39,161 bases of DNA from Candidatus Kerfeldbacteria bacterium (GTDB taxonomy: Bacteria; Patescibacteriota; Patescibacteriia; SBBC01; JACPUP01). The notes under the pieces were generated by a model that was given only the letters and a program-made list of their open reading frames with translations, did no database searches and was not told the DNA's origin. Below are positions 3,042 through 15,812 of the stretch, piece by piece. The stretch lies in NCBI GenBank assembly GCA_016192205.1, contig JACPUP010000068.1, positions 1 through 39,161 on the forward strand, written 5' to 3'. Position numbers and translations under genes: made by a program. How positions within the stretch are numbered: position 1 is the stretch's first letter; every line of letters starts with the position of its first letter.

Positions 3042-6000
3042 TCACTGCCGCGGCTCAAGACTCGGCGGCTGGGCTGCACCGCTGACGCCACCCAGCTGAC
3101 TGCGTTCGAGAATGTCAGCCTCGACCTCGGCTCGATCTCGCCCGTATTTGAGGTGCGAGAGCTCGCGAATCGCCCGGGCCACCTCGCTGCTCGTCGGCGA
3201 CGGCGGGAATGTCTGGAGATGGAAAGCCTTGCCCACCGAGTTGTTGATGAGCAACTTCACGTAGGCGTTAAACCGTTCCTGGTTGACCAAGTCGTAGGCG
3301 TCGAACACCGGCGCAAACTCCTTGGCCAATACCTCCGCGTCTTCGACGCCAATCCTGAAGGCGATCTTCGTGCCCACGTTCCCGAGCACTGCATCGCGGA
3401 CTTTGGTGTCACCGCCCGGTGAGAGCTGCCCCATGTACTGGTGGGCCATGGTGAGGTTCAGCCGGTACTTCCGCGCTTCGGACAGGATGGTGGCAATGGA
3501 GTCCGTGATGAAGTTTTGGAACTCGTCAATGTAGAGGTAGAAGTCTTTGCGCTCGGCTTCGGGCTGGCTGGCGCGCGCCAACGCCGCCATCTGGAGCTTC
3601 GACACGATGATGAGCCCGAGCAACGATGCGTTCACCTCGCCGACCTTCCCCTTCGACAGGTTTACCAGGAGAATTTTTTCTTTGTCCATGACCTCGCGGA
3701 AATCAAACCCCGAGCGCGGCTGGCCAATGATGTTCCGCATCATCGCGTTCTCGACGAACCGACCAACTTTAGAAATGAGGTAGCCGAGCATTTCGGATTT
3801 GTGGAAGTCCGAGGTCTTGGCCATCTCCTTTTCCCAGAACGCGCGCACGATCGGGTCGGTCACCTTGGCGAGCTTGTACCGCTGGAACGCCTTGTCCGTG
3901 AAAATGCGCGGGACGTCCGTGATGGTGCCGGGGTACTCACGATCCTCCATGAGCGTCAGCATGGCGTTGCGCATATTGTGCTCGAACATCGGGCCGATCA
4001 TCTCCGGCGGGAACAGCTTGTAGAAAATGGCAATCATCTCCTGCACGGCAAAGTCGCGTTCCTCTGGGGTATCGGCCTCGAGCATATTGAGACCGAGAGG
4101 ACGGACGGTATCCGACGGATCGAACAGGATGACGTCCTCGGCGCGCTCTTTCGGCACCGCGCCGATGACCGCGTCCACGAGCGAGCCGTGCGGATCCACC
4201 ACGCACACGCCACGGCCTTCGCGGATGTCTTGCTTGGCCATTTCCTCCATGAGCACAGACTTCCCCACGCCAGTCATGCCGATGATGTAGACGTGGCGGC
4301 GGCGGTCGTCGGGCGCGATGCGGATGGTGGTGTCGACGCCGCGGTAGCGGTTCAAGCCCAGCACCAACCCCGCCGTTGGTACGTTGACGGGCGCTGGTGC
4401 CTTGCGCGCAGCCAGCCACAGGATGTTTGGCGTTTCCGTGGTCGGCAGCGGCAGGTGGTAGACGCTCGTTAATTCTTCGGAATTGAGGACAAAGCGCATG
4501 CCTTCGTGAAAATGCCGGAAAATAAAATCATGCACGAACCGCGCTTTGTGCAAGGTCGGCTTTTTCTGAAATCCCGTATTCGACTCTTGGGAGGTGTACT
4601 GGGAAAACGCATTCACGACATTCATGAGCGTTGACCGCGCCTGCTCCTGGGTCGGCGCCGACACCACCACGCGGAGGTTCACATCGAACCCGTACTTACT
4701 CGCCTTCTCTTCGAGCGACTTCACGAGCTCCTGGTCCATGGGCGTGAGCGACGGCGGCACTTGCGTTTTCTTGAGCTCCTCTTCTTGGGACTTCGTTTTG
4801 AAGCTGGAGAAGATGGAACCGCTGACCTTGCCCACGGCTGACCAACCACCTCCTCCGACTGCCGCCATGGCCTCGTTGAAATTCTTGCCGTGCTGGACGA
4901 GCCGGGCCACGCGCTGGCCAGCTGCCCGCCAGCCCTTGCGCGCCGGCCGGATGACGTACTGAATGGCCACGCCTTCTTCCGGACCGAGTTTCGACAAGGT
5001 GTTCGTCACGGCATTGAGCGGGTCGGCGTCGAGTTTTCGGTACGTGCGAATCTGGAACATCGAACGGCGCGACAGCCCAAGGTACGTTCCGACAATCTTC
5101 CCCTGCGGCGAAAAAATGTTGTAATCCTCCACTTCCTCAATGTGCGCCTTGTCGTACTGGGCGTGGACTTGCTGTTCCACCAGACGCTGGAGGTGCCGCG
5201 GAACTGCGAGATAGAACACGATCAACCCTTTCTGGGAGACGATCTCGAGCGAGAGTTGGTCATTCCGGCCATGCCAAAAGTTCAGCCAACTCGTGTGGAG
5301 CACATTGCGGCCCTGCTCGGGACGGATGTTGCCTAGGTTCAAGTAGAGCGTTTCGGCAGCTGCCAAGAGCTCTTTCGGGTCAGGCGCGGGCTGGCCTTCT
5401 TTCGTTCCCGCTTCTTTGGGCACGAGCACGCGGAGGATGACGAGCTGGAGCGACAAGGGCAGCTTGTTCGATCGGCGCAAGCCCAGGCGGATGAGTGCGA
5501 TGACGGCGACCGCGACACCGATGGCGAGCACCCCCAGCAGAATGAGCTGCACGATGGGCTGCTCGAGCAACCCGTCCGCTCCATCCGACGCGCTGGCCGA
5601 CGGCCCAACCGACAACCCCAACTGGAGCACAGCGTGCAATCGCTGGCCCCGCTTCTTTTGCGCTAGGGCGATAACCTGGTCAGCTTTGATCTTGGCTTCT
5701 TGCTCGAGGAAGAACCGGTTGACGCCCGGGATGAGCTTGAGCCAGCCGCGGATGAGGTTCAAAATGGATTTCGTCTTGAGCTTGACCTGTTCGATGAGCC
5801 GGCCAATGCGCGTGGCCACCTCTTCGCCCTCGCGACGAAACCGCTCTTGGTCCTCGGGCGACAGCCGCACGTACACGTCCTGCAAATCCTCGGCCAAGAT
5901 GTGCTCGATTTCAAGCACAAGTGAACTCTTTGCTCCAGGCGGTACCGGCGACAGTGGGGTGGGGACCGGCGCTGGTGCCGGACGCTCGGCCGGCGCTGGC

Positions 6001-6119
6001 TGGGCCTGCCCTGGCCGTTGCTCTGGCTGCTCTGACGCAGGAAAATGCTCGGGCTGCTCACCTGGCTGCTCGCGTCTCGGCTGGATCGGTGGTCCCTCTG
6101 GAATGCTTGGCTTTTCCAT
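3042..6119 (-). CDS. large membrane-anchored P-loop ATPase resembling type IV coupling proteins (TraD/TraG/VirD4-like)
   Basis: 1025-aa ORF. Pro/Gln/Glu-rich N-terminus, then a TM segment (IVQLILLGVLAIGVAVAVIALI). The C-terminal half has Walker A IIGMTGVGKS, Walker B FYLYIDEFQNF and MAHQY..Q motifs typical of coupling-protein / HerA-FtsK-like ATPases. Confidence 0.8.
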   Translation of the reverse strand: MEKPSIPEGPPIQPRREQPGEQPEHFPASEQPEQRPGQAQPAPAERPAPAPVPTPLSPVPPGAKSSLVLEIEHILAEDLQDVYVRLSPEDQERFRREGEEVATRIGRLIEQVKLKTKSILNLIRGWLKLIPGVNRFFLEQEAKIKADQVIALAQKKRGQRLHAVLQLGLSVGPSASASDGADGLLEQPIVQLILLGVLAIGVAVAVIALIRLGLRRSNKLPLSLQLVILRVLVPKEAGTKEGQPAPDPKELLAAAETLYLNLGNIRPEQGRNVLHTSWLNFWHGRNDQLSLEIVSQKGLIVFYLAVPRHLQRLVEQQVHAQYDKAHIEEVEDYNIFSPQGKIVGTYLGLSRRSMFQIRTYRKLDADPLNAVTNTLSKLGPEEGVAIQYVIRPARKGWRAAGQRVARLVQHGKNFNEAMAAVGGGGWSAVGKVSGSIFSSFKTKSQEEELKKTQVPPSLTPMDQELVKSLEEKASKYGFDVNLRVVVSAPTQEQARSTLMNVVNAFSQYTSQESNTGFQKKPTLHKARFVHDFIFRHFHEGMRFVLNSEELTSVYHLPLPTTETPNILWLAARKAPAPVNVPTAGLVLGLNRYRGVDTTIRIAPDDRRRHVYIIGMTGVGKSVLMEEMAKQDIREGRGVCVVDPHGSLVDAVIGAVPKERAEDVILFDPSDTVRPLGLNMLEADTPEERDFAVQEMIAIFYKLFPPEMIGPMFEHNMRNAMLTLMEDREYPGTITDVPRIFTDKAFQRYKLAKVTDPIVRAFWEKEMAKTSDFHKSEMLGYLISKVGRFVENAMMRNIIGQPRSGFDFREVMDKEKILLVNLSKGKVGEVNASLLGLIIVSKLQMAALARASQPEAERKDFYLYIDEFQNFITDSIATILSEARKYRLNLTMAHQYMGQLSPGGDTKVRDAVLGNVGTKIAFRIGVEDAEVLAKEFAPVFDAYDLVNQERFNAYVKLLINNSVGKAFHLQTFPPSPTSSEVARAIRELSHLKYGRDRAEVEADILERSQLGGVSGAAQPPSLEPRQ

Positions 6120-6806: not shown

Positions 6807-6835
6807 TTGCAAAACGTCTCGTCGTGTGCTATACT
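6807..6835 (+). promoter_or_regulatory. sigma70-like promoter (TTGCAA-17 nt-TGcTATACT)
   Basis: -35 TTGCAA 6807-6812, 17-nt spacer, extended -10 TGc TATACT 6830-6835. Lies in an AT-rich stretch upstream of ORF 6871. Confidence 0.6.
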
Positions 6836-6870: not shown

Positions 6871-7746
6871 ATGAAATCATCGGAAAATGTAATGGCCGTT
6901 GCGCCGTGGCTCACGTTTCCTGAAGCCACGCTTTTGACCGCGCGCGCACTCAAACGCGTCATCCCGCAGTTGGCCGGTGCGGACGAGTACCAGGTGGCCT
7001 CACAAACCTTGCGGCCCACTCTTGTGAAGCGTACCGGCTACACGTTTATCACAGCGGTTGCTCCGCGCTACAATCGTGCGACCTGCGATCTCTCGACCAC
7101 AGGCGTTTTCGTATTCGCCACGCCTCAATCCGTCGTCGCGGTCTACCACCGGTTCCCCGTGCGGCCGGAAGATGACGCTGCGCTCCAAGCACTCGGGCCG
7201 TCAGCCACACCGCCTGCCAAACTCGGGGCACTCATGGAGCAACTCCTCCGTTGCTACCAACGGACACTGGCAGCCATCGCCGCCCAAGCCACACACGCAG
7301 AGCGTGGCGAGGGGACGTCCGCGCGGGAACGGATGCTCGTGGGCCGGAACGTGGGCGAGTTCCACGCCCTCCTGCAAGCGACCCTGAAACCGCTTTCGAA
7401 GCTTGGGGCCGACCCGGCGCTCATCTCAACCGACCGCGCCGCCAGCCTTCGCCTCATGCGCGACGCCATCACCACGCGCTGGCACGACCTACGGCGCGAG
7501 GTGGGCAGGCGCCACGGTCGCCCGGCTTCCGCCACCCTCCCCGAGCCGCTGCAGCGGTCGCTCAACCGCTACCTGGCCGTGGGCGGCGTGGTCGTCGCGT
7601 TCGTCCTGGCCGCCACCACCTTCGGCTTCGGCTCGCGGCACCGTCCCTTACTCGAACAACCCTTCCTCTTCTGGTTCATTGGCACCACGCTGGTCTTTGC
7701 CGTCCTCGGTGTGCTAGAATTCCTGCGGAGGAAGCAACTCCTCTAG
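6871..7746 (+). CDS. hypothetical protein with two C-terminal TM helices
   Basis: 291-aa ORF (alternative start at M8, 6892). Soluble N-terminal region of about 225 aa, then LAVGGVVVAFVLAATTFGFG and FLFWFIGTTLVFAVLGVLEFL. No family recognised. Confidence 0.7.
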   Translation: MKSSENVMAVAPWLTFPEATLLTARALKRVIPQLAGADEYQVASQTLRPTLVKRTGYTFITAVAPRYNRATCDLSTTGVFVFATPQSVVAVYHRFPVRPEDDAALQALGPSATPPAKLGALMEQLLRCYQRTLAAIAAQATHAERGEGTSARERMLVGRNVGEFHALLQATLKPLSKLGADPALISTDRAASLRLMRDAITTRWHDLRREVGRRHGRPASATLPEPLQRSLNRYLAVGGVVVAFVLAATTFGFGSRHRPLLEQPFLFWFIGTTLVFAVLGVLEFLRRKQLL

Positions 7747-7750
7747 CCCT

Positions 7751-7942
7751 ATGACCCAGGTCGCCACCGAAACGAAAACGCAGCTTGCCACCCACCAGCG
7801 CGTTGCCGTCTCCTTCATTCTTGGCACCGCGACCATGGTCTTGGTCTCGGTCATCGTCGCCGCCATCATCACGTTGACCATCAACCAGTCCGCGACCACC
7901 ACCAGCTTCCCCGTCGAGGGCGACCGGACCTTCGAAACCTAA
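7751..7942 (+). CDS. small single-pass membrane protein (63 aa)
   Basis: ORF starts 4 nt after the upstream stop. Central TM segment [25 protein letters not shown]. It sits tightly between two co-directional genes. Confidence 0.55.
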
Positions 7943-7952
7943 GGAGGCGGCT

Positions 7953-8951
7953 GTGCCTGCCCTCCCCTCCTGGCTGACGTACCTCGTGGTCGGCTTTGTG
8001 TTTGCCGCGGTCGGCGCCTGGCTCTACAAGGAGAACATGCGCGAGAAGTCCATGACGCCAACGCTCGATCAGTTTTCCAAAGACCTCACGAAACTCGCGC
8101 GGGCGAACAAGCTCGACCCGGTCGTCGGCCGTGAGCACGAGATTGAGCGCGTCATCCAAATCCTCTCGCGCCGGACGAAGAACAATCCGGTCCTCATCGG
8201 CGAGTCCGGCGTCGGCAAAACCGCGATCGTCGAAGAGCTCGCCAACAAGATTGCGCGCGGTGACGTACCCGAGACCTTGAAAGACAAGCGGGTTATTTCT
8301 CTTGACCTGTCCGCGCTCGTGGCCGGTACCAAGTACCGCGGGGAATTCGAGAAACGCCTGAAGCTCGTGCTCAATGAGATTGTTGGTGCCAAACGGAGTA
8401 TTATCCTGTTCATCGACGAGCTGCACGAGCTGGCCGAGGCCGGCGAGGCCACCGGTGCCATTGACGCGGCGGACATCCTCAAACCCGCGCTCGCCCGCGG
8501 CGAATTACAAGCGATTGGCGCAACGACCTTCAGCGACTTTGCTAAGCACATCGAGGGGGACGTGACGCTGGAACGCCGGTTCCAACCGGTGAAAGTGAAA
8601 GAGCCAACCGCCGCGGAAACGGTCGAAATCATGCGTGGACTCCGCGGCCGCTACGAGGAACATCACCACGTCTCGATTTTAGATGAGGCGATCGAAACGG
8701 CAGTGCAATTGGCTGACTCCTGCCTCAAGGACCGTCACTTCCCAGACAAGGCTATTGACGTGATCGACGAGGCCGCAGCCAAAATCCGGCTCGAGGCCAT
8801 CCGTCATCCCGAGCGGTTCCGCAACGGGCTGCCCGAACTCCACAAGAAAGACGTGCAGGACATCATCAGCGAGTGGCGATCGGACCTCATCTGCTTCGTC
8901 GACCAGCGACCGCCCCAGGTCGTGCCGCAGACGCCGCTCGCCCGGGCCTAG
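7953..8951 (+). CDS. membrane-anchored Clp/Hsp100-type AAA+ ATPase, first nucleotide-binding domain only
   Basis: GTG start preceded by AAGGAGG. N-terminal TM helix [22 protein letters not shown]. This is followed by the signature ClpA/B/C D1 sequence: [36 protein letters not shown], Walker [18 protein letters not shown], and [12 protein letters not shown]. There is no N-domain, middle domain or D2. Confidence 0.85.
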
Positions 8952-8955
8952 CGCG

Positions 8956-8985
8956 TTGCGAAGGTCACCCGCCCTCGCGTACAAT
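8956..8985 (+). promoter_or_regulatory. candidate promoter (TTGCGA-18 nt-TACAAT) upstream of cysS
   Basis: -35 TTGCGA 8956-8961, 18-nt spacer, -10 TACAAT 8980-8985. 10 nt containing GAGGAG precede the ATG at 8996. Confidence 0.4.
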
Positions 8986-11477: not shown

Positions 11478-12581
11478 TTACGACCGGTCTTGATCGAGGA
11501 CGTAGATCGCTTTGGCCGTCGTGCCACTGGTTGTGACGGCGCGAACTTGGACGTTGTGCCCGACCACCAGGTCCTCGAACAGGATGGCCCGGCCACGCTT
11601 ATTGATGAGGACCGTCTCGGCCGTCAGGCTGATCGTCAGCGCCGCCTTACCGGCTGACGTGCGATCAAGCACCAGGGTTAAAACGGTCGGGTCGAGGCTC
11701 GCGATGGAACCTGGGAACAGGTACGACCGCGCGTCAATACGCTGGTCCATGACCTGGAGTGCGCGGAGGGCGTTGGTGCCGGTCCTCAAGCCACGGACCC
11801 CCACGCGGTCGCCGCTCTTGAGCGATGCGCAGGCCACCGGATCGAGGCCTCGGTCACGGATGACCGTGGCCGCCGTTAGCGCGACGGTCCAGCTGGCCTG
11901 TTCGCCGCGACTCTTGACCGACACGCCCAGGCTCCCGCCGGCGCAGTCGACCGACGCGAGCTGGCCCTCGAGCATCGTTATGCGGATGAGCACCCGATCA
12001 GCGGCGATCGTGTCCTGGCCCTTCGGCCGCTCGCCTAAGACCTTGACGGTCATCCCCACCCCTAAGTCGCTGAAGGCACCGGGGCGATTCCCCTGGAAAA
12101 TCGTGGTCGCATTGGTGGTGGTGACGGTCTGGTTCGGCAGATTCTGCTTGGCTGGGTTGACGGGGTTCAGCACAAAGGTCTGGGCGGCCGGATCAATGCT
12201 CTCGATCGTTCCGCGGAAGAACGGGCCGCGCCGGAGCGACCAGTTCTTGACCTGGGTCGCGGTAATCGTCGTGCCGGCGAGCGTCCCCCAGACCTGCAGA
12301 TCATCGCCGAGGCCGAGCTCATCGAGCGCCGAGTAGACCCGGGACTGGCGAACGAGCGTCGCGGTGTCGGCGATCCGAACCAGGTACGTCTTCGTCCCAA
12401 CTTGGAGCTGTAGGGTGGCCGGGAAGGTCGGAGCGCTGAACGCGGTCAGAGCGCCGCGCCAGGAAGACGACGTCGGATCGTCAACGGCCCGGGTTGCCAT
12501 TGGAAAACCGACCAAGCCGAGGACGACCGCGAGCGCCAGCGCATACCGGACAGGACGGGTGGAGGTGAGGGAGGCAGTCAT
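11478..12581 (-). CDS. secreted protein with 4 tandem beta-domain repeats (DUF5666-like)
   Basis: Signal-like N-terminus (RYALALAVVLGLVGFPMATRAVDD). Four modules of about 80 aa, each starting G(T/S)I.S(I/L)D and ending (V/L).VG..V.V.G. Paralogous to the next gene upstream. Confidence 0.8.
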   Translation of the reverse strand: MTASLTSTRPVRYALALAVVLGLVGFPMATRAVDDPTSSSWRGALTAFSAPTFPATLQLQVGTKTYLVRIADTATLVRQSRVYSALDELGLGDDLQVWGTLAGTTITATQVKNWSLRRGPFFRGTIESIDPAAQTFVLNPVNPAKQNLPNQTVTTTNATTIFQGNRPGAFSDLGVGMTVKVLGERPKGQDTIAADRVLIRITMLEGQLASVDCAGGSLGVSVKSRGEQASWTVALTAATVIRDRGLDPVACASLKSGDRVGVRGLRTGTNALRALQVMDQRIDARSYLFPGSIASLDPTVLTLVLDRTSAGKAALTISLTAETVLINKRGRAILFEDLVVGHNVQVRAVTTSGTTAKAIYVLDQDRS

Positions 12582-12653: not shown

Positions 12654-13991
12654 CTAGTCGTCCGACCCGAGGTCTTTATCCTTGACGAGCATGGCCGTGA
12701 GCTCGGTCCGGACCCGCGTGCCTTTCACCTGCACCTCATCGCCGACCGAGAGGTTGCCGAATTCGATGGTCACGCCCTTCTTGTTGACGATGGACGTTTC
12801 GCTCGTGACGATGACGGTCAGGTCTTCGCCCTCTTCTTGGTCGAGCACGAAGGTTCGGGCATCGGCATCAAGGCTCCCGATAGTTCCATGTTCGGTTACC
12901 CGCCAGGTGTCGAGGAGCGTCTTGTTACGAACAACGAGCGCTGTCAGCTCGTCATCGGCGAGCACGCCCCACACTTGCACCGTGTCGCCAACGGCCAGGT
13001 CAGCAAAAGCCATGACCGTCCCGTCTTTGTTCACCAGTACCGTGCCGGTGACCACCAGCACGGTGAGGTCATCCCCCTGTTTCTGCTCCATCACAAAGGT
13101 CATGGCATCGGCGTCGATACTCTCAATGGTTCCGTGCTCAACCCGGAAGCGTTTCCGCTCGCTCTTGTCCCAAACGACCAGCGCGGTCAGGGCCGTGTCG
13201 CCGGTTTTCAAGCCGCGCACGTGCACGGCGTCCCCGACTTCGAGCGTGTCGAAGCTGGTGAGGCCGAAGTACCGCGTGTGGAAGACGGTTTCGTCGTTCG
13301 TGGTGATGACGTGCGTCGTTTCCACACCGCGTTTCCGCACAAGCAGGTCGAAGGTTTTGGCGTCCGCATCGACCGCGGTCACTTTGCCGTTGAGCGTTGT
13401 GAGCTTGATGAGGATGCGGTTGGCCGCAATGGTGTCGGCGGACTTGTTCCAGACGCCGATGACCCTCACCGTCATGCCGACCTCCAAATCGGCGAACTCG
13501 CCGGCGCGATTGCCCTGGAAGACCTTCGTGCCGTCGTTGGTCGTGACAGTCAGGGGGTCGCCGCGCTTCGGCGTATAGACGAACGACTTCGCAGCCGCGT
13601 CGATGCTGTCAATGGTGCCCCAGAGCGCGTGCCGGCCGCGCCACTGGATGCTGTAGTTCTTGATGTGCGTGGCGGTCATGGACGTGCCGGCAAGCGTCCC
13701 GCGCACGCGCAAGTCGTCACCAATGCCGAACTCGGACAGTGCTGACCGGCCGTTGTACTTACGGACGAGTTTCGTGTCAGCGGTGACCGTGACTGTGTAG
13801 GTCGTTGCCTCGGACTGCACGGTGAGCGTGGCTGGCAACGCCGTGTCGCTCAAGCTCGTGAGCGTCCCCCGAATGGTCGTCAGCGCCTCATTGTCATCAT
13901 CAGCGGCCGACACTGGCGCAACGGACAACGGTGCAATCGCAAAGAACGACGCGAAGGCCATGATGAGCCCGCGTTGCAAAATTGTTTTCAT
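12654..13991 (-). CDS. secreted protein with 5 tandem beta-domain repeats (DUF5666-like)
   Basis: RBS GGAAGGAG. Signal peptide MKTILQRGLIMAFASFFAIAPLSVAPVSA-ADD. Five modules, for example GTIESIDADAMTFVMEQKQGDDLTVLV...LAVGDTVQVWG and GTIGSLDADARTFVLDQEEGEDLTVIV...LSVGDEVQVKG. Confidence 0.85.
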   Translation of the reverse strand: MKTILQRGLIMAFASFFAIAPLSVAPVSAADDDNEALTTIRGTLTSLSDTALPATLTVQSEATTYTVTVTADTKLVRKYNGRSALSEFGIGDDLRVRGTLAGTSMTATHIKNYSIQWRGRHALWGTIDSIDAAAKSFVYTPKRGDPLTVTTNDGTKVFQGNRAGEFADLEVGMTVRVIGVWNKSADTIAANRILIKLTTLNGKVTAVDADAKTFDLLVRKRGVETTHVITTNDETVFHTRYFGLTSFDTLEVGDAVHVRGLKTGDTALTALVVWDKSERKRFRVEHGTIESIDADAMTFVMEQKQGDDLTVLVVTGTVLVNKDGTVMAFADLAVGDTVQVWGVLADDELTALVVRNKTLLDTWRVTEHGTIGSLDADARTFVLDQEEGEDLTVIVTSETSIVNKKGVTIEFGNLSVGDEVQVKGTRVRTELTAMLVKDKDLGSDD

Positions 13992-14645: not shown

Positions 14646-14723
14646 GAATCATGAATGAAGAATCGTGAATTGCGAACGTGATGCCGCAGCCCATGATTCA
14701 TGATTCGTGATTCGCTATTCTTC
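14646..14723. repeat. GAATC-unit imperfect inverted repeat (family copy 2)
   Basis: Left arm GAATCATGAATGAAGAATCGTGAATTGCGAA. Central segment CGTGATGCCGCAGCC. Right arm CATGATTCATGATTCGTGATTCGCTATTCTTC. The right arm overlaps the last codons of dnaJ. Confidence 0.5.
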
Positions 14724-15812
14724 GTCTTGCAAATCCTCGTAGAGCTTCTTCTGCTTCCGCGACAACTTCTCCGGTACCTTCACGACCACTTCAACCAAGT
14801 GGTCGCCCCGACCTCGGCCACGCAACGACGGCACGCCCTTACCTTTCAAGCGCAGCCGGCGGCCCGGCTGGGTGCCGGCTGGCACTTTCACCGCCACCAC
14901 GCCGTCCACGGTTCGCACGTCTACTTTTATCCCGAGTGCCGCATCGGCCGGACTCACGGTCGTGCGCGTCACAATATCGTCTCCGTCTCGCCGCAGTTCT
15001 GGATCTGGCCGCACGCGCACGAGGATGTGCACATCACCCGGACGGCCGCCGCGCGGGCCAGCATCGCCCTGACCCTGCAAACGCAGGGTTTGGCCGTCAG
15101 CGATACCCGCGGGGATGGCGACCTCGAGCCGTTTGAGTTTGCGCTCGCGACCCTGGCCCTTGCACGTGGTACAGCGTTTAGCCGGCACCTCGCCCTCGCC
15201 CTGACAGGTGGGACAGACCAGGGCCGTCTGGAACTGGCCCAGGAGCGTAGCGCGCGTTTCCATCACCTGACCAGCGCCGCGGCAGGTGGAGCACTGCTTC
15301 AAGCCGCTGCCGGGTTCACGGCCAGTGCCGTCGCACCTCGCACAGGCGTGCTGGGCGTCGAGCTCAATGGTCTTGCTCGTGCCAAAGACTGCTTCGGGGA
15401 AGTCTATGGTCAAGGTCAGCTCATACGAGTTCCCCGCCGTCTGTTGCCGACCGTGGCGTGAACCGCCGAAGCCAAACAAGTCGCCGAAGATATCGCCGAG
15501 GTCGCCGACGTTGCCAAACCCGCCTTGGAACCCGCCCTGCCGGAAAAAGTCCTCCCACGACACAGTGCCAAACCCGCCGCCTCCGCCCGGCGCGCCCTGG
15601 CCAAAACCAGCCGCGCCAAACCGGTCATACTGCTGGCGCTTGTCGGGGTTGCCAAGGATTTGGTAGGCGGCGTTCAATTCCTTGAACTTGGCTTCGTTGC
15701 CGCCCTGCTTGTCCGGGTGGTACTGGTGGGCGAGCTTGCGGTAGGCCTTGCGGATGTCGTCTTGCGAAGCGTCTTTGGAAACGCCCAAAATCTCGTACGG
15801 GTCCGGCGTCAT
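14715..15812 (-). CDS. dnaJ: molecular chaperone DnaJ
   Basis: J-domain DPYEILGV...YHPDK, a G/F-rich linker, four CxxCxGxG zinc motifs (CARCDGTG, CSTCRGAG, CPTCQGEG, CTTCKGQG) and the C-terminal domains. Confidence 0.95.
   Translation of the reverse strand: MTPDPYEILGVSKDASQDDIRKAYRKLAHQYHPDKQGGNEAKFKELNAAYQILGNPDKRQQYDRFGAAGFGQGAPGGGGGFGTVSWEDFFRQGGFQGGFGNVGDLGDIFGDLFGFGGSRHGRQQTAGNSYELTLTIDFPEAVFGTSKTIELDAQHACARCDGTGREPGSGLKQCSTCRGAGQVMETRATLLGQFQTALVCPTCQGEGEVPAKRCTTCKGQGRERKLKRLEVAIPAGIADGQTLRLQGQGDAGPRGGRPGDVHILVRVRPDPELRRDGDDIVTRTTVSPADAALGIKVDVRTVDGVVAVKVPAGTQPGRRLRLKGKGVPSLRGRGRGDHLVEVVVKVPEKLSRKQKKLYEDLQDEE

Follow-up and report, generated by a model that had tools for sequence, protein, structure and literature searches.

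Can the first AAA+ module (D1) of a Clp/Hsp100 unfoldase stand alone at a membrane, or is a gene that encodes only this module the remnant of a longer one? This question is raised by a gene at 7953..8951 (+) of a 39,161-nt stretch of DNA (hereafter referred to as the window) from a Candidatus Kerfeldbacteria assembly, and the same group supplied the nearest named homologues of the gene product, which we call TM-D1, in a database search. The genome (880 kb, 96% complete, 69 contigs) belongs to the CPR/Patescibacteria, ultra-small and uncultured bacteria with episymbiotic cells.

ORF calling yielded a frame of 332 aa with a GTG start for TM-D1. A Shine-Dalgarno sequence, AAGGAGG (7941..7947, +), can be read off 5 nt before GTG 7953, where it overlaps the TAA stop of an upstream 63-aa ORF; the 332-aa frame with a strong ribosome-binding site and GTG start that an earlier note had described from the sequence was thus borne out. 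The public gene call, P0001, is 304 aa long, begins at Met29 and is without the membrane helix described below (positions 7953-8036 are affected). Two observations favour GTG 7953 over Met29 as the start, namely the Shine-Dalgarno site and the N-terminal conservation of the orthologues: among the closest of these, which are 81-74% identical, the N-terminus is conserved through the entire helix region. Automatic annotation may hide the membrane anchor of this family.

Analysis of the protein confirmed a hydrophobic helix at about residues 4-25, as previously proposed. A Kyte-Doolittle scan placed this membrane helix at L4-Y25 (7962..8027, +), the AlphaFold model at residues 6-32, and an N-terminal hydrophobic helix was present in 119/119 family members. 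After about 30 residues of linker follows the D1 module, with Pfam matches to AAA (80-192) and AAA_lid_9 (220-291). All motifs that had been quoted for a ClpA/B/C-type D1 directly after the helix and ahead of a short tail are present on the forward strand: Walker A, GESGVGKT, at residues 83-90 with K89 (8199..8222); pore loop-1, KYRG, K127-Y128-R129-G130 (8331..8342); Walker B, IILFIDELH, at 150-158 with D155 and E156 (8400..8426); the sensor-1 region GATT at 189-192 with T192 (8517..8528); and the arginine fingers R208 and R209 in ERRFQP, 207-212 (8571..8588). In an alignment of 54 members, S85, K89, D155, E156, G189, A190, T192 and both arginine fingers were invariant, as was the entire pore-loop block KYRGEFE, while D300 and W308 in the lid were nearly so. 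Ser85, which replaces the usual Pro of Walker A, is a signature of the family, since G-x-S-GVGKT was found in 118/118 short homologues. The D1 small (lid) domain (8610..8900, +) comprises the AAA_lid_9 match and an AlphaFold helix at 298-316. It is followed by a variable, Pro-rich C-terminal tail and the stop codon (8901..8951, +); the tail is not conserved and has a pLDDT of 66-69.

The protein contains only the first AAA+ module, as the earlier note had stated. A Pfam scan of TM-D1 detected no Clp_N, AAA_2, ClpB_D2-small or Peptidase_M41, and the NCBIfam models for ClpB, ClpA, ClpV, ClpG and ClpK aligned to it by their D1 part alone. For the ClpB model, positions 152-407 of 853 were covered, and the whole-protein cut-offs were far from being reached (394 bits against a cut-off of 1232). 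NCBIfam holds no model dedicated to the TM-D1 family.

The charge distribution around the helix was equally uniform across the family. The flank before the helix has a median length of 5 residues and a mean of 0.04 K/R, while the 15 residues past the helix carry a mean of 3.3 K/R, and K+R after the helix exceeded K+R before it in 119/119 members. Given the short, K/R-poor flank and the positive charge after the helix, we infer an N-out/C-in orientation, with the ATPase in the cytoplasm and a helix that is not a cleaved signal peptide. Across the family, 24-33 residues separate the helix from the DPVIGR motif, so the ring must be near the bilayer. AAA+ arginine fingers work in trans, across subunit interfaces, and their conservation therefore implies that TM-D1 assembles into an oligomeric ring.

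Orthologues of the same build were present in 20/20 genomes of the same order that were searched and in about 29 of the 151 class genomes sampled, as open frames of 317-373 aa whose alignment with the query begins at about residue 5. Outside the class the short form is rare, with two clear cases in about 380 genomes. Databases contained at least 118 clusters of it (the best 118 are all 309-367 aa long), some of them on contigs of about 1 Mb, and members are labelled generically as Clp ATP-binding subunit or AAA family ATPase. The short architecture thus recurs on long contigs of many related genomes, one of the checks that had been suggested. Another, for D2 remnants or a frameshift downstream, detected neither: cysS begins 44 nt past the TM-D1 stop, leaving no space for a D2 remnant. 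Based on these comparative data, truncation or frameshift of TM-D1 was rejected. TM-D1 is an intact, conserved protein in which an N-out/C-in helix and a linker precede a complete D1 whose catalytic and substrate-gripping residues are strictly conserved.

We next compared the predicted structure with known ones. A single chain was modelled by AlphaFold2 with the family alignment as input, and the model (pLDDT 89.5, pTM 0.80) showed a complete D1 behind the helix at 6-32. The first Foldseek matches against the PDB were the D1 domains of ClpC/ClpC1 (8a8u, 9gi1, 9if4 and 7abr), with 57-60% identity and an rmsd of 2-3 Å over 274 columns; those of ClpB and ClpA ranked after ClpC, and all of the top 50 matches were Clp D1 domains, with no Msp1 among them. 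Walker A and B, the KYRG pore loop, sensor-1, the double arginine finger and AAA_lid_9 are common to TM-D1 and to the ClpC/ClpC1 structures compared (M. tuberculosis ClpC1, 8a8u and 9if4; S. aureus ClpC, 9gi1 and 9rai; B. subtilis ClpC, 7abr). In contrast to ClpC, TM-D1 has a membrane helix instead of the N-domain, a linker of 12 residues at the position of the M-domain (as seen against the ClpC of this genome and in the AlphaFold model), Ser rather than Pro in Walker A, and neither D2 nor its LGF loop. The last lid helix is retained and aligns to ClpC IGKQDVAEVVSRITGVPL, after which the Pro-rich tail begins. The sole V-G-F of TM-D1 falls within the membrane helix, and the ClpP-docking (I/L)G(F/L) loop is absent together with D2. 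The earlier suggestion that a D1-only ring would be unable to dock ClpP fits the sequence, given that the loop lies in D2 of the genome's own ClpC.

Canonical Clp components, which the earlier note had proposed to look for, are encoded elsewhere in the genome. Its ClpC (853 aa) consists of Clp_N, D1 with a GDPGVGKT Walker A, a short M-domain, D2 with an LGF-type loop (ALGF) and D2-small; ClpP and FtsH are also encoded, the latter on contig C17. A second full-length Clp of 924 aa lies outside the window (C2:13704-16478, +) and has an N-terminal zinc ribbon (CPEC...CPRC) and two membrane (hydrophobic) helices. Its D1 is degenerate, with the Walker B Glu changed (DN) and the pore-loop Tyr and both arginine fingers lost, and its D2 is intact, with no LGF loop. 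Homologues of 900-1000 aa of this dead-D1 Clp were found in nearly all class genomes searched. Since the D1 motifs evidently decay when unused, as in this paralogue, their invariance in TM-D1 is meaningful. AAA_2, the D2-type domain, was confined to the two full-length Clp genes, which lie on contigs C57 and C2 without linkage to the TM-D1 gene. This search of the whole genome revealed no D2-only partner gene, and the idea of a Clp split into two genes, one of them for D2, was rejected accordingly. Membership in a defence system was rejected as well, PADLOC having returned weak generic AAA matches only.

When D1 regions were placed in a tree with the dead-D1 paralogue as root, the short, membrane-anchored forms grouped in one clade (SH-aLRT 87), with two full-length Clp clades as its neighbours (SH-aLRT 99 each), and TM-D1 diverged as deeply as these two. 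On this phylogeny, TM-D1 is a third Clp paralogue with a clade of its own beside the normal ClpC/ClpP pair. The base of the short clade is occupied by forms of 387-399 aa, L101 (G044:C83) and L102 (G088:C5), in which a membrane helix and a D1 with canonical GDPGVGKT are combined with a coiled-coil M-domain, and which end directly past the WAGIP lid motif. They resemble intermediate stages on the way from ClpC to the D1-only form, which suggests that replacement of the N-domain and loss of D2 came first and loss of the M-domain later. Two-ring Clp proteins of about 700 aa were also found in other classes of the phylum (L103, L104 and L107), with a ClpE-like CxxC...CxxC zinc ribbon replacing the N-domain. 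We rejected these as membrane-anchored intermediates because of their N-terminal zinc ribbon and the lack of a membrane helix.

TM-D1 is predicted to be in an operon with a CorA-like gene and the gene of the 63-aa membrane protein, here termed SP-up. The gap between the CorA-like gene and SP-up is 4 nt, and that between SP-up and TM-D1 is 10 nt. A consensus promoter scan found 4 sites, compared to 0.6 expected in shuffles. One promoter-like site, TTGCAA-17-TATACT with TG (6807..6835, +), precedes the three genes, and another, TTGCGA-18-TACAAT (8956..8985, +), lies in the gap ahead of cysS and likely marks the end of the operon; both are consensus matches only. The first gene (6871..7746, +) encodes a degenerate CorA paralogue of 291 aa with a cytoplasmic domain and two C-terminal membrane helices. 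It had no Pfam match but reached an E value of 4e-92 with a profile of its syntenic orthologues, and all of the top 50 Foldseek matches of its model (pLDDT 80) were CorA. It shares the CorA fold, but GFG takes the place of the GMN that closes the first membrane helix of CorA (FGFGS, versus YGMNF in the canonical GMN copy of this genome on contig C14). At four loci of family f3 (L014, L016, L017 and L018), the CorA-like neighbour has only 223-272 aa, with the N-terminal domain and one membrane helix, and is an open frame in 4/4. The CorA-like gene of L009 (G010:C16, 210-1136) has an in-frame stop that separates two same-frame ORFs (210-656 and 690-1136); either a pseudogene or an error in sequencing could explain it, and the genome is only 80% complete.

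Two families of small membrane proteins, which we count as new here, flank the ATPase gene in many lineages. SP-up (7751..7942, +) is a single-pass protein of 63 aa whose Thr/Lys-rich N-tail leads into a membrane helix and whose C-terminal motif is DRTFET, as delimited by the ORF and the family alignment; across the family, the outside tail is Ser/Thr/Pro-rich and ends in DR(S/T)F(T/E)T. SP-down proteins (about 50-70 aa) have a polar N-tail, an LVEVxGG motif and a helix at the C-terminus, and are therefore tail-anchored. In profile searches, SP-down was detected in 13 of 29 ATPase-bearing genomes, always directly downstream of the ATPase gene, and in 0 of 30 genomes without the ATPase. SP-up gave 8 strong matches and 1 weak match in the same 29 genomes, all directly upstream, and 0 strong matches in the 30 controls. 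The profiles were built from neighbours of the ATPase and the sampled genomes are mutually related, so that the absence from ATPase-less genomes is partly circular. SP-down was not found in the present genome, and both proteins went undetected in many ATPase-bearing lineages in the profile search. Both nevertheless persist where CorA is not adjacent (G051, G163 and G122), and in G183, which belongs to another class, the ATPase gene is directly preceded by a gene for a 366-aa protein with a similar K/T-rich tail and helix at its start. From this neighbourhood pattern, SP-up and SP-down are the likeliest candidates for partners or clients of TM-D1.

A genome-wide search for the N-tail of SP-up retrieved SP-up alone under strict rules and one weak candidate (E ~1e-3) on contig C14, outside the window. 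The predicted product of this gene (C14:17444-18832, +; likely start MNTKTSTSVFSKVSLGVRQKVAIGFFLVGAV) has a Thr/Lys-rich tail and a helix followed by about 340 residues, and may be a second protein with an SP-up-like tail.

With moderate confidence, we propose that TM-D1 functions as a threading ring that faces the membrane, is independent of ClpP and, in its build, is a bacterial analogue of Msp1/ATAD1 derived from a Clp D1. On the cytoplasmic side of the membrane, its subunits would form one AAA+ ring, probably hexameric. With the membrane helix in place of the N-domain at the entry face of D1, the pore entrance would point at the bilayer. There, the Tyr128 pore loops would grip the cytoplasmic tails of membrane proteins, and ATP would drive pulling or unfolding, so that the gripped proteins would be extracted or remodelled. 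Lacking D2 and the LGF loop, TM-D1 could not feed ClpP. SP-up in this genome and SP-down in its relatives would be the likeliest partners or clients of the ring, and the CorA-like neighbour would be a possible partner. TM-D1 would act on membrane or secreted substrates, along the lines that had been suggested before, and its exclusive small membrane-protein neighbours lend this idea some indirect support. It should be considered here that, in some Hsp100 proteins, D1 oligomerises poorly once isolated and that D2 is the main motor of ClpA and ClpB. More tentatively, and as a possibility that we consider less probable, the D1-only ATPase and its small single-pass partners might constitute an undescribed bacterial machine that grips short cytoplasmic tails of membrane or surface proteins for protease-free extraction or remodelling, a Clp-derived and independently evolved counterpart of the eukaryotic Msp1. 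The N-tail of SP-up would then be cytoplasmic, and the task would possibly concern surface proteins needed by the episymbiotic cells.

The neighbourhood of the gene could also be taken to mean that TM-D1 is a dedicated partner of the CorA-like protein, gating, assembling or remodelling a CorA-derived pentamer that no longer conducts Mg2+. In 20 of the 29 ATPase-bearing class genomes, a CorA-like gene immediately precedes the ATPase gene; this adjacency holds for all f1 and f2 loci as well as for another class (G206), often with a gap of just 4 nt. Moreover, this copy stays an open frame despite the loss of GMN (and, in f3, of the second helix) and with a canonical CorA elsewhere in the genome. 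However, corA is also found directly upstream of cysS where the ATPase gene is missing (G065, G043 and G041), and 9 of the 29 ATPase-bearing genomes have no adjacent CorA, with no member of the CorA family detected in 4 of these 9. The CorA-like protein also evolves very fast, being 32% identical to its G001 orthologue, compared to 82% for TM-D1, between two genera of one family. As for GMN, raw counts by family seemed suggestive, with 10 losses against 2 retentions and 1 partial motif (GIN) in the presence of the ATPase and 8 retentions against 3 losses in its absence, but give way, on the CorA tree, to about 3 losses with the ATPase and about 3-4 without. Since a single clade accounts for most of the ATPase-linked losses and GMN is lost just as often without the ATPase, we rejected the idea that the ATPase drives GMN loss and attribute the pattern to phylogenetic inertia. 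Taking together the corA-cysS arrangement without the ATPase, the genomes without adjacency and the equal frequency of GMN losses, the CorA link looks mainly like inherited synteny. The corA-cysS arrangement may predate the one with the ATPase gene, and we regard a dedicated CorA partnership as unlikely.

Another conceivable reading is that TM-D1 forms no ring of its own but joins or docks onto a two-ring Clp, for example by tethering ClpC via mixed rings or by giving a live D1 to the dead-D1 Clp. This would agree with its 60% identity to the D1 of ClpC and with the presence, in the same genome, of the membrane-anchored 924-aa Clp with its inactive D1 and active D2. Yet the dead-D1 Clp shows no co-occurrence with TM-D1, as it is found in nearly all class genomes including those without TM-D1; and the invariant Ser85 signature, a divergence as deep as that of the full-length clades and the lack of linkage to the genes on C57 and C2 make such mixed assemblies quite improbable. 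TM-D1 could instead be a nucleotide-dependent membrane switch or scaffold that binds partners without threading. Torsins, which are single-ring relatives, are described as acting with partner proteins and not as classical unfoldases (PMC4999309, PMC7175109). Such a switch would, however, be free to lose KYRGEFE and both arginine fingers in the way the dead-D1 paralogue lost its corresponding residues, and their invariance renders this role doubtful. It is, finally, extremely improbable that TM-D1 is merely a 3'-truncated or frameshifted clpC or clpB remnant, or an assembly artefact, without a function of its own. The similarity to the D1 of ClpC and the draft state of the genome might raise this suspicion, but the identical short build recurs in dozens of genomes and in the 118 or more clusters, including those on contigs of about 1 Mb. 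A clade, a membrane helix and a Ser85 of its own set the family apart, its catalytic residues are invariant, cysS follows after 44 nt, and D2 occurs nowhere except inside the two full-length genes. We thus favour the threading ring over these alternatives.

Clp/Hsp100 proteins are classified by whether they combine D1 with D2 or have a single D2-like ring, the class II module of ClpX and HslU being homologous to D2 (PMC5415569). With class I, TM-D1 shares the features of D1, but not the two modules per chain or Clp_N; the coiled-coil M-domain of ClpB and ClpC is also absent from it and is kept in the basal relatives from G044 and G088. With class II, it shares the single AAA+ module per chain, but this module is of the D1 type (AAA plus AAA_lid_9, not AAA_2). 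TM-D1 therefore falls into neither class, since it has a single module that is nevertheless D1-type. The likeness to Msp1/ATAD1 is one of build only and consists in an N-terminal anchor that a short linker joins to a single, cytoplasm-facing AAA+ ring, and in the lack of a protease domain. Msp1 is described as a membrane-anchored AAA+ protein that extracts membrane proteins (PMC7018516, PMC12793716), but it belongs to another AAA+ lineage, whereas the top 50 structural matches of TM-D1 are all D1 domains of ClpC, ClpB or ClpA. FtsH is likewise a bacterial membrane-anchored AAA+ ring, yet it has an M41 peptidase and two membrane helices, while TM-D1 has no peptidase domain. The dead-D1 Clp is a membrane-tied Clp-family ATPase of the same organism, but with two rings, of which D1 is inactive and D2 active, and in the tree the D1-only family is rooted on it.

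TM-D1 represents a widespread and strictly conserved family of membrane-anchored proteins, each predicted to form a D1-only ring outside both textbook Clp classes, and no Clp of this kind, D1-only or membrane-anchored, turned up in our literature search. New in the present analysis are the corA-cysS synteny without the ATPase, the event-level test of GMN loss, the basal forms that bear an M-domain and the two small-protein families exclusive to the neighbourhood of the ATPase. If our proposal is true, D1 would be able to serve as a stand-alone motor, and bacteria would have a second kind of membrane-bound AAA+ machine beside FtsH, one that is protease-free. Because the tiny genomes of Patescibacteria keep few such genes and yet retain TM-D1, its retention points to an important task in membrane proteostasis or in the handling of surface proteins. 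Despite the uncultured hosts, the protein should be practical for biochemistry and cryo-EM, since it is small (332 aa) and predicted with high confidence.

We further observed several features in the surroundings of the operon. A gene at 3042-6119 (-) encodes a 1025-aa coupling-protein ATPase similar to VirD4/TrwB/TraG. In the distant relatives L021 and L023, a gene with DUF8128 and T4SS-DNA_transf lies upstream of the corA/ATPase pair, and since this coupling-protein gene is similar, conserved synteny reaches beyond the operon. Two adjoining genes, at 11478-12581 (-) and 12654-13991 (-), each contain DUF5666, and a DnaJ gene at 14715-15812 (-) has the same placement in relatives.
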